Source: an uncultured Chitinophagales bacterium (GTDB lineage: Bacteria > Bacteroidota > Ignavibacteria > UBA10030 > UBA6906). Taken from it: DNA of 64,000 bases. The position numbers and the translations under genes are program-made. Position 1 is the stretch's first letter; each line of letters opens with the position of its first letter. Below are positions 8,807 to 62,995 of the stretch, in pieces. Location of the stretch: NCBI GenBank assembly GCA_964495695.1, contig CAZBWR010000011.1, positions 1,032-65,031 on the forward strand. Reading direction: 5' to 3'. Under the pieces are notes generated by a model, which saw only the letters and a program-made list of their open reading frames with translations, was not told the DNA's origin and did no database searches.

Positions 8807-9259
8807 ATGCCGCTCCGCAAAAAATCAGGCCCGCAAATCGCTCCGTCCCTTTCGAGATCCCTGACCGATGCCGCGAACGACGCGAAGACGAAAGCGTACG
8901 CTCCTTACTCACGATTCAGAGTCGGATCGGCGTTGCTTGCTGAAGATGGTACCGTGTTTACGGGATGCAATGTGGAGAACAGCTCGTTCTCCCTCACAAT
9001 TTGCGCCGAGCGCAATGCATTGTTCAAGGCAGTAAGTGAGGGACATTCAGTGTTCCGTGCTATTGCGGTAACATCAGATGATCCCGGCTTTCTGACGCCG
9101 TGCGGTGCTTGCAGACAGGTTTTATCGGAGTTCGCGCCGGACATTGAAGTGATTCTTGCGACAGCATCAGGGAAGATAAAGAGAACGAATCTGAAGGAGC
9201 TTCTTCCCATGCCCGCCAATCTTAAGAAGCTCGGAAGATCCCGTCGCAGGCGGTCATGA
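8807..9259 (+). CDS. cdd: Cytidine deaminase (homotetrameric type)
   Basis: AYAPYSRFRVGSAL, GCNVEN, ICAER, PCGACRQ zinc motifs. Confidence 0.95.
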   Translation: MPLRKKSGPQIAPSLSRSLTDAANDAKTKAYAPYSRFRVGSALLAEDGTVFTGCNVENSSFSLTICAERNALFKAVSEGHSVFRAIAVTSDDPGFLTPCGACRQVLSEFAPDIEVILATASGKIKRTNLKELLPMPANLKKLGRSRRRRS

Positions 9260-10523: not shown

Positions 10524-10543
10524 TTTCTTGCCTGAAAAGTTGC

Positions 10544-10576
10544 TGACATAATGCTGTCACAAGGCGGTTGTATCTT
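10544..10576 (+). promoter_or_regulatory. Candidate WYL-activator-dependent promoter: TGACA-N6-TGTCA palindrome, TGTCAC-N10-TATCTT
   Basis: Perfect 5-bp IR at 10544-10548/10555-10559. -10 TATCTT at 10571-10576, the same hexamer as the mraZ and rplU promoters. No TTG -35. Confidence 0.7.
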
Positions 10577-10620
10577 CAAGGTGAAATTCATCACAAAAAG
10601 AACAACCCAAAGGAGGCAGT

Positions 10621-10938
10621 ATGGGCGACAGGAATTCTGTCGTTGAATTGGCAATCATCAGAATGAAACCGGAAGCGGTAAGTTCGATGCCCGAAATGAG
10701 ACAGTTGCTGCAGAAGTGGCTTGAAGGAGTTCCCGGATTTCTGAAGTACGTGCCGTATCAGTCATTTGAGGATTCATCAGTCTTTGCTGATTACTTGGAG
10801 TGGGATTCACTCGAGAGTGCAAAGGGAGCGGCCAAGCATTTTGCAAACTCGGCGGCGGGGGCGTCTCTTATGTCAGGTGTCGAGGCGACACTCTTCTTCG
10901 GCCACTTCGTTCCCACACCGATGAAGGAGCAAGTATGA
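10621..10938 (+). CDS. ABM-like dimeric alpha/beta-barrel protein
   Basis: AAGGAGG RBS. PGFL...S......DYLEWDSLESA pattern. Confidence 0.7.
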   Translation: MGDRNSVVELAIIRMKPEAVSSMPEMRQLLQKWLEGVPGFLKYVPYQSFEDSSVFADYLEWDSLESAKGAAKHFANSAAGASLMSGVEATLFFGHFVPTPMKEQV

Positions 10939-11513
10939 GCGGAAAAAAATCCGGAAAGCGGGTCCGTTGTTCGTGGTGTGGAACCGATCCCGTGTATGTC
11001 CTGTATCATGACAGGGAGTGGGGAGTCCCTGTCCATGATGACCGCAAGCTTTTTGAGATGCTGATATTGGAAGGGGCTCAAGCGGGCCTGAGCTGGATCA
11101 CCATTCTGCGGAAACGGGAAAACTACAGAAAGGCATTCGATAATTTTGACCCGGTAAAAGTTGCCCGGTATGATCGCCGGAAGCTTGCGACGCTCTTGAA
11201 GGATGAAGGAATCGTACGCAACAGGCTGAAGATCCAGGCTGCGGTGACGAATGCCAGGGCGTTCCTTGCAGTGCGGAAGGAGTACGGGAGCTTCGACCGC
11301 TATATCTGGCAGTTCGTCGGGGGGAAGCCGAAGAAGAATTCTCCGAAATCCCTCAAAGATGTACCCTCAAAATCACCGGAGTCGGATGCTATGAGTAAGG
11401 ACCTGCTGAAGCGTGGCTTCAAATTCGTCGGGTCGACGATTTGCTACGCATTTATGCAAGCAACGGGGATGGTAAATGACCACACGGTCGACTGTTGGAA
11501 GTACAAACGGTGA
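10935..11513 (+). CDS. tag: DNA-3-methyladenine glycosylase I
   Basis: RCSWC, YHDREWG, LEGAQAGLSW, IVRNRLKI, GFKFVGSTICYAFMQATGMVNDH. ATGA overlap with the upstream gene. Confidence 0.97.
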   Translation: MSGKKSGKRVRCSWCGTDPVYVLYHDREWGVPVHDDRKLFEMLILEGAQAGLSWITILRKRENYRKAFDNFDPVKVARYDRRKLATLLKDEGIVRNRLKIQAAVTNARAFLAVRKEYGSFDRYIWQFVGGKPKKNSPKSLKDVPSKSPESDAMSKDLLKRGFKFVGSTICYAFMQATGMVNDHTVDCWKYKR

Positions 11514-24315: not shown

Positions 24316-24438
24316 ACAAACAACCTACAGACCCACGGGTGGGAGACCACTCCAATCAACCTCAAAACCACACTTCCAACGCATCTTCCAGTCGCAGAGT
24401 TTTTTGGCTAAAATGAGCCAAAAATCCCAATTATTAAC

Positions 24439-24466
24439 TTGACTTTCCTAATATATTGCGTATCTT
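24439..24466 (+). promoter_or_regulatory. sigma70-type dcw (mraZ) promoter
   Basis: TTGACT-N16-TATCTT. Confidence 0.65.
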
Positions 24467-62920: not shown

Positions 62921-62966
62921 AAGATGCCCCGATCCATTGAGATTAAGCATTCTTCATCCGCTGCCG

Positions 62967-62995
62967 TTGCATCTTTACGGGCGAATTACTATCTT
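62967..62995 (+). promoter_or_regulatory. sigma70 promoter of rplU-rpmA
   Basis: TTGCAT-N17-TATCTT. Confidence 0.7.

Follow-up and report, generated by a model that had tools for sequence, protein, structure and literature searches.

The window (the whole 64,000-nt stretch of DNA that was analysed) carries an operon of cdd, atl and a WYL regulator gene, followed on the same strand by a composite operator-promoter element and two further genes, encoding an ABM-fold (dimeric alpha+beta barrel) protein and Tag (Table 1). The cdd stop overlaps the atl start, and atl is translationally coupled on both sides, to cdd upstream and to the WYL regulator gene downstream. Atl comprises the MGMT DNA-binding domain only, and its score against the NCBIfam ogt superfamily (45.7 bits) was below the 46.4-bit cut-off. 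Because PWHRV (EIPWHRV) replaces the catalytic PCHRV, Atl was classed as an alkyltransferase-like damage sensor and not a transferase. Past the element, the tag start overlaps the ABM stop (ATGA), in an arrangement of translational coupling. The 105-aa ORF gave a weak Pfam ABM match (E = 0.0038). A word-indexed homologue search with this ORF returned no relatives, and an exhaustive HMMER search returned approximately 140 remote relatives; ABM was matched by nine of the ten that were tested, three of them above the cut-off. The AF2 model of the ORF (pLDDT 94.5) aligned with ABM structures in Foldseek at a TM of 0.7-0.8. No defence genes were found beside the regulator, where the neighbours are cdd, atl, the ABM gene and tag, and PADLOC returned generic WYL models only.

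Table 1. Coordinates of the regulator, the operator-promoter element, the target genes and two reference promoters in the window.
Feature	Position	Strand	Remarks
cdd, cytidine deaminase	8807..9259	+	first gene of regulator operon; Pfam dCMP_cyt_deam_1, E = 3.4e-18
atl, alkyltransferase-like protein, 107 aa	9256..9579	+	Pfam DNA_binding_1, E = 4.5e-23
HTH_11-WYL-WCX (YafY-type) transcription factor, 315 aa	9576..10523	+	presumed operator binder; Pfam
A-tract	10535..10538	+	6-9 nt 5' of palindrome; ~-48 to -45 from predicted start
Operator 5' flank TTGC	10540..10543	+	family consensus C-T-R-C; conserved columns
Composite element, 33 bp	10544-10576	+	TGACA-TAATGC-TGTCAC-AAGGCGGTTG-TATCTT, direct reading
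Promoter-distal half-site TGACA	10544..10548	+	~-39 to -35
Asymmetric spacer TAATGC	10549..10554	+	family TA-nn-G-n; fills -35 slot, unlike TTGACA
Promoter-proximal half-site TGTCAC	10555..10560	+	GTC at ~-27 to -25 ('-26 element')
N10 spacer AAGGCGGTTG	10561-10570	+	between TGTCAC and TATCTT
-10 hexamer TATCTT	10571..10576	+	TAnnnT at fixed offset across loci
Predicted transcription start, G	10583	+	7 nt past -10; promoter geometry only
Shine-Dalgarno GGAGG of ABM gene	10612..10616	+	direct reading
First target: divergent ABM-fold protein, 105 aa	10621..10938	+
Second target: tag, 3-methyladenine DNA glycosylase I	10935..11513	+	Pfam Adenine_glyco, E = 1.2e-85
mraZ promoter	24430-24466		TTGACT-N16-TATCTT; TATCTT at 24461
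rplU promoter	62961-62995		TTGCAT-N17-TATCTT; TATCTT at 62990

The regulator gave Pfam matches to HTH_11 (E = 1.8e-13, residues 6-58), WYL (E = 5.5e-20, residues 139-209) and WCX (E = 7.9e-15, residues 236-310). An AF2 model of moderate confidence (pLDDT 74, pTM 0.40) placed the domains in the order wHTH, linker, three helices, WYL beta-domain and WCX. The modelled wHTH comprises three helices and a two-strand wing. The three-helix bundle between wHTH and WYL (helices 73-89, 92-108 and 111-123) was modelled with a regional pLDDT of just 50-65. The best Foldseek matches were DriD (3.7e-16, with full-length alignments) and PafBC (1.8e-15), whereas CapW and BrxR, which are repressors, scored approximately 1e-9. 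A family profile search again ranked activators ahead of CapW and BrxR, with PafBC as the best match (2.7e-29). Residues R34 and R38, both invariant in the family, were aligned by phmmer with PafB R46 and R50. Five of the eight DriD ssDNA contacts are conserved, with Y168, R178, R204, W206 and R207 of DriD corresponding to Y158, R172, R199, F201 and R202; of the others, R176 corresponds to K170, Y192 to Met187 (a position at which the family consensus is Tyr), and R189 is without a counterpart.

A search of 60 genomes from the host's family, six of them of the same genus, detected no orthologue of the regulator at E <= 1e-20. Relatives at approximately 50% identity are abundant in other lineages, and the nearest ones are in other phyla; this distribution suggests that the cassette was probably acquired horizontally. 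The only other WYL-domain ORF in the host genome is a weak fragment (28.8 bits) at the start of contig 58 (C58:19-207). The host MnmG has homologues of approximately 70% identity in Bacteroidota and Ignavibacteria MAGs, which places the host in the Bacteroidota/Ignavibacteria lineage. The initial annotation had described the locus as PafBC-like but from a distant phylum, and this lineage is indeed far from Actinobacteria.

The composite element starts 21 nt past the stop of the WYL regulator gene and ends 45 nt ahead of the ABM-fold ORF. Direct reading confirmed a perfect TGACA/TGTCA inverted repeat with its right half, TGTCAC, 10 nt 5' of TATCTT, as first annotated. Counted by script, the spacing is GTC-N12-TATCTT. 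With the start at G10583, the operator would cover approximately -39 to -24. At 16, 17 and 18 nt spacers the -35 slot of the window reads TAATGC, ATAATG and CATAAT, respectively, none of which contains TTG, and an extended -10 is also absent. CTGACA was considered as a -35 hexamer and rejected, since it would demand a 22-nt spacer. The recurrence of TATCTT as a -10 hexamer at the mraZ and rplU promoters was likewise borne out by direct reading. As these promoters carry TTGACT or TTGCAT together with TATCTT, the organism uses canonical -35/-10 promoters. Both are of sigma-70 type and provide useful references for an uncultured host lineage.

Homologous loci were retrieved by means of regulators with approximately 45-53% identity (aligned). 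The 80 loci obtained came mostly from Ignavibacteria/Bacteroidota, Acidobacteriota (Blastocatellia) and Chloroflexota; four were labelled Heliomicrobium. Exact TGACAT-N5-TGTCA was located directly past the regulator stop in 51 loci, 50 of which had enough flank for analysis. A position weight matrix (PWM) scored an element of at least 26 bits in 58/80 loci, every time on the strand of the regulator and downstream of it. When the PWM was built without the window sequence, the window site scored 41.6 bits. None of the 80 loci had an operator 5' of the regulator gene. The element was within 200 nt of the regulator stop in 52 of the 58 loci. In five others (L007, L013, L029, L049 and L032) one opposite-strand gene lies between regulator and operator, and in L078 the element is 1,527 nt downstream of the regulator stop. 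The inserted opposite-strand gene in Ktedonobacteria loci resembles a PPOX-type flavoprotein, and the operator is then in a divergent intergenic region.

Conservation was measured in columns free of the search pattern. On the 5' side, C at -1 and R at -2 were found in 50/50 loci, T at -3 in 49/50 and C at -4 in 44/50; within the spacer, A at +6 and G at +9 were each found in 50/50. C at +16 was present in 47/50 loci. The columns flanking the element carry approximately 0 bits, so the conservation does not derive from recent common ancestry. A was enriched at PWM positions -9, -8 and -7 (34, 40 and 32 of 50 loci), and the A-tract upstream of the palindrome is possibly UP-element-like. TAnnnT was located exactly 11 nt past TGTCA in 48/50 loci, against a background of 0.9% per position, and the predicted start position is a purine in 39/50. 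The missing TTG -35 of the original description was found to extend to the family: with spacers of 16-19 nt, a TTG -35 was present in 0/50 loci, and an extended -10 TG in just five. The spacer between the half-sites is conserved yet asymmetric (T5, A6 and G9 invariant), unlike a -35 box. For the clade as a whole the composite motif is AAA-n2-CTRC-TGACATA-nn-G-n-TGTCAC-N10-TAnnnT.

The proximal TGTCA was present in the best site of every locus, the sole exception being the weaker second site of L018. This second site (28 bits, TGACATATTGTGGTCAC-N10-TATATT) lies approximately 834 nt past the WYL stop, and some genomes may hold more than one target promoter. The distal half is TGCCA instead of TGACA in ten loci (L008, L030, L034, L041, L051, L055, L067, L072, L074 and L078), and this variant has T instead of C before the distal half (ctgtTGCCATAATGGTGTCAC). 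The proximal TGTCAC-N10-TAnnnT was kept in nine of the ten, and L055 gave just a weak 10.8-bit match. The loci with the TGCCA variant are mostly Aggregatilineales or other Chloroflexota.

The -10 slot varies with the host label while the operator and its spacing to the -10 are constant. In three low-GC loci labelled Bacteroidota/Ignavibacteriales (L002, L064 and L073) the slot is TAnnTTTG (TATATTTG, TAAGTTTG and TATGTTTG), and in a fourth, L018, it reads TAACTTTA. TAnnTTTG is the Bacteroidetes -7 consensus. Chloroflexota and Acidobacteriota loci mostly have TAnnnT followed by G or C. A slot that follows its host in this way is as expected if the housekeeping sigma factor of each host reads it.

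The exact palindrome TGACA-N6-TGTCA occurs once in the window (approximately 0.06 expected) and twice in the 4.2-Mb genome, compared with three times in a reversed control; the frequency of the bare 10-base palindrome alone is at chance level. The significance of the element therefore derives from its position directly 3' of the WYL regulator gene and from its conservation in homologous loci, which together argue for a real conserved element and not a chance match. A genome scan for further sites had been proposed at the outset. With the PWM it gave the window site alone: no other site of at least 12 bits was found in the 4.2-Mb genome, and the maximum for shuffled sequence was 8 bits. The regulator is thus predicted to serve one promoter in the host genome, unlike a PafBC-like regulon. 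The other exact copy, at C10:67272-67287 (L082 1973-1988), is a perfect 16-nt palindrome, TGACATCATGATGTCA, followed by TTTTT. It was rejected as a target, as it lies between two minus-strand genes, has no +6 A and no TAnnnT and scores below 12 bits, and it is probably unrelated to the family operator.

The first gene past the element was classified in 44 loci. VOC/glyoxalase/bleomycin-resistance proteins accounted for 21 and DinB-family proteins for 12, and the others included small numbers of SDRs and GyrI-like proteins and a single HhH-GPD glycosylase. As judged by these annotations, the targets share a genotoxin/electrophile theme with the neighbours of SiwR. In the window, atl, tag and the ABM protein gene together make up a candidate module for responding to alkylation or genotoxins.

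The element was compared with the promoters of known WYL systems. The PafBC-dependent consensus, tTGTCRgtg-N8-TannnT, equals GTC-N12-TAnnnT (PMC5656591). In that mycobacterial system, as described for sigma adaptation at the RecA-NDp promoter, PafB R46/R50 read the GTC of the '-26 element', sigma region 4 is held by the wHTH of PafC, and the promoter lacks a -35 (PMC8635444). The PafBC-like spacing claimed for the window was upheld: TGTCAC-N10-TATCTT equals GTC-N12, fits TGTCR and is kept across at least three phyla with the -35 always absent. The likeness covers the proximal half-site, the spacing, the lack of a -35, the correspondence of R46/R50 with R34/R38 and the best profile match. PafBC differs in being composed of two WYL proteins, as a heterodimer or a fusion, where the window has a single regulator gene, and in having a non-palindromic element with one wHTH on DNA, where the window family conserves both half-sites. 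The PafBC regulon comprises approximately 150 genes and its DNA binding occurs only with RNA polymerase, compared with one site in the window genome.

DriD of Caulobacter crescentus binds as a homodimer to the pseudo-palindrome ATACGAC-N7-GTCGTAT over an absent -35, at a constant distance to the -10 in all its promoters; its R37/R41 read guanines, the two wHTHs of the dimer sit on the DNA, and alpha-CTD and beta are contacted through its three-helix bundle (PMC10853764, PMC13004042). The window protein shares with DriD the wHTH-linker-three-helix-WYL-WCX order, the best Foldseek match, the R-x3-R pair and most ssDNA-contact residues, at a sequence identity of approximately 18%. DriD has several targets (didA, bapE, recJ and dnaG), and the window genome has one site.

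SiwR (MSMEG_1359, Mycobacterium smegmatis) also binds as a homodimer, to an imperfect palindrome of 19 bp that lies between the -35 and -10 positions; it depends on the -26 region and switches on neighbouring genes of the DinB family (PMC10693628). Compared by description and probe, it resembles the window regulator as a single-gene HTH-WYL-WCX protein with DinB-family and glyoxalase-like neighbours. Its operator is TAGGAC-N7-GTCCTA (GAC-N7-GTC), where that of the window is TGACA-N6-TGTCA (GAC-N8-GTC). The SiwR target is divergent, whereas the window target is co-directional and downstream and consists of the ABM gene and tag. SiwR is reported mainly in Actinobacteria, and the window clade is found in Bacteroidota/Ignavibacteria, Acidobacteriota and Chloroflexota.

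Spacings in published oligos were counted by script, and the -10 hexamers of the DriD and SiwR promoters were assigned by our own reading of these oligos. The counts were GAC-N7-GTC-N12-CAATCT for the DriD CCNA_03891 promoter, GTC-N7-GGC-N12-CAAGGT for DriD didA, GAC-N7-GTC-N12-CAGGGT for SiwR and GAC-N8-GTC-N12-TATCTT for the window. CAATCT was read as the DriD -10 because the engineered TTGACA of the DriD authors sits 17 nt before it. The -10-like hexamer of SiwR ends 7 nt short of the end of the 62-bp upstream region. On this reading of the DriD and SiwR -10 hexamers, the GTC-to-(-10) distance appears identical in PafBC, DriD, SiwR and the window.

Two further systems were compared. DdaA (Acinetobacter/Moraxellaceae) is also a homodimeric WYL DNA-damage activator, with the palindrome CGWCA-N5-TGWCG and GWC cores; it differs in its GAC-N7-GTC spacing and in being a global regulator that replaces SOS, and its authors report a promoter arrangement unlike that of PafBC (PMC12392091, PMC13010146). 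The motif of MbpR, a WYL transcription factor of Lactiplantibacillus plantarum, is YAATGGTGCCA and resembles the window spacer plus proximal half (PMC11880434). The tested MbpR sites are CAATGGTGACA and GAAAGGTGTCA, where many clade loci have ATAATGGTGTCA, and the A that is critical for MbpR corresponds to the invariant A at +6 of the clade. MbpR differs in that it is reported to be monomeric, to bind c-di-GMP and to act as a repressor from sites that are mostly within coding regions, and it has no composite promoter (PMC11880434).

No description of a TGACA-N6-TGTCA WYL operator or of its regulator clade was found in the literature searched. A homodimeric WYL activator that replaces the -35 is not a new idea, since DriD and SiwR precede it, and by analogy the regulator and its operator are most likely a cross-phylum addition to the known WYL DNA-damage activators. 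As far as the sequences indicate, the distinguishing features are the N8 core spacing, the asymmetric TA-nn-G spacer, the co-directional layout and the single-promoter regulon in the host genome.

We consider it probable that a homodimeric WYL activator, itself probably ssDNA-sensing, recruits RNA polymerase to this -35-less promoter. In the following scheme, DNA binding, the sense of the regulation, the ligand and the point of transcription initiation are all inferred. The YafY-type protein would bind TGACA-N6-TGTCA as a homodimer, and each wHTH would read a GAC/GTC core via Arg34 and Arg38, so that the operator would cover the slot of the absent -35 hexamer. Having a good -10 (TATCTT) and neither a -35 nor an extended -10, the promoter would need the bound regulator for use by the housekeeping-sigma RNA polymerase. 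The regulator would act as the upstream anchor, most likely in a DriD-like manner, with the two wHTHs bound to DNA and RNA polymerase contacted by the three-helix bundle and the core. Docking on RNA polymerase may differ from that of DriD, SiwR and DdaA, the half-site cores being 8 bp apart compared with 7. DNA damage is the likely trigger, because the WYL domain keeps most DriD ssDNA-binding residues. The product would be an ABM-tag transcript starting near 10583; the regulator most likely switches on the ABM-fold and tag genes. Several points count against this reading. The tyrosine of the WYL motif is Met187 in this protein, DriD R189 has no counterpart and the AF2 model is of only moderate confidence; moreover, transcripts running on from the cdd-atl-WYL operon could be another source of target-gene expression.

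Repression is the most credible of the alternatives, although we regard it as unlikely. The WYL protein on the palindrome would block the ABM-tag promoter until a ligand (ssDNA, a nucleotide or a small molecule) freed it. Such a role has precedents in BrxR and CapW, HTH-WYL-WCX repressors that act on palindromes, of which CapW is reported to derepress on sensing ssDNA (PMC11662680), and in MbpR, which is reported to repress and binds a related motif (PMC11880434). The overlap of the operator with the core promoter (-39 to -24) is also compatible with a block. A repressed promoter should be strong alone, yet the family has a TTG -35 in none of the 50 loci and an extended -10 in only five. A distance from operator to -10 that is held this rigidly across phyla is typical of activators, namely DriD and PafBC, and both the sequence and the fold are nearer to activators than to CapW and BrxR. 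The locus also has no adjacent defence system and no operator upstream of the regulator gene, hence no autorepression layout.

Literal sigma adaptation as in PafBC, with one wHTH on the proximal TGTCAC and the second holding sigma region 4 lifted off DNA, was judged improbable, more so than repression. The proximal half-site fits TGTCR at the identical GTC-N12-TAnnnT distance and is invariant where the distal half varies (TGACA or TGCCA), and PafBC is the best sequence-profile match. Against this, the high conservation of the distal half-site and 5' flank implies that both wHTHs would be on DNA, as in DriD; there is a single regulator gene and no PafB/PafC pair; PafBC sites are non-palindromic; and in DriD structures the homodimer is bound with sigma region 4 still docked on DNA (PMC10853764, PMC13004042). 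Recruitment in the DriD/SiwR mode is therefore favoured, given the conserved distal half-site and flank and the single regulator gene. The initial proposal, that a single-gene YafY protein uses the same sigma-adaptation geometry, stands for the geometry; the literal mechanism is a poor fit with a single-gene regulator and a two-half-site palindrome.

A chance palindrome, or an RNA/DNA hairpin such as a WYL gene terminator, either of them without a protein-operator role, is suggested by the lack of genomic enrichment of the bare palindrome and by a weak terminator-like hairpin at 10553-10568 in a simple scan, but both readings are effectively refuted by the comparative data and have a negligible probability, as conservation in 58/80 loci is at the level of sequence and compensatory changes are absent, pairing in the stem is broken by the TGCCA variant, the stem is just 5 bp with no U-tract after it and a fold z-score of -1.9, and the weak hairpin uses positions that are variable between loci.

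Among DNA-damage regulators that act independently of SOS, WYL activators are coming to be seen as the main group. To our knowledge, all characterised WYL activators come from Actinobacteria or Proteobacteria. A widespread, uncharacterised YafY clade is now defined by a precise composite motif, which can be used to predict targets of the clade in Chloroflexota, Acidobacteriota and the Bacteroidota/Ignavibacteria lineage. The locus is also a compact test case for a homodimer that replaces -35 recognition with sigma factors of differing specificity. By our count, four systems that have been studied by experiment obey the GTC-N12-(-10) rule. A more tentative extension, to which we give somewhat less than even weight, is that a GTC 12 nt 5' of the -10 represents an ancient rule of docking that WYL activators follow universally, in every bacterial phylum, with PafBC, DriD, SiwR and the window clade all included. 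If true, regulator, operator-promoter and target would form a self-sufficient, host-independent induction cassette that needs only the near-universal recognition of a -10 and could be transferred between phyla even where their sigma factors differ in the -35/-33 boxes that they recognise. The absence of the regulator from 60 related genomes and the TAnnTTTG -10 slot of Bacteroidota/Ignavibacteriales-labelled loci fit this reading of the locus as a mobile cassette.
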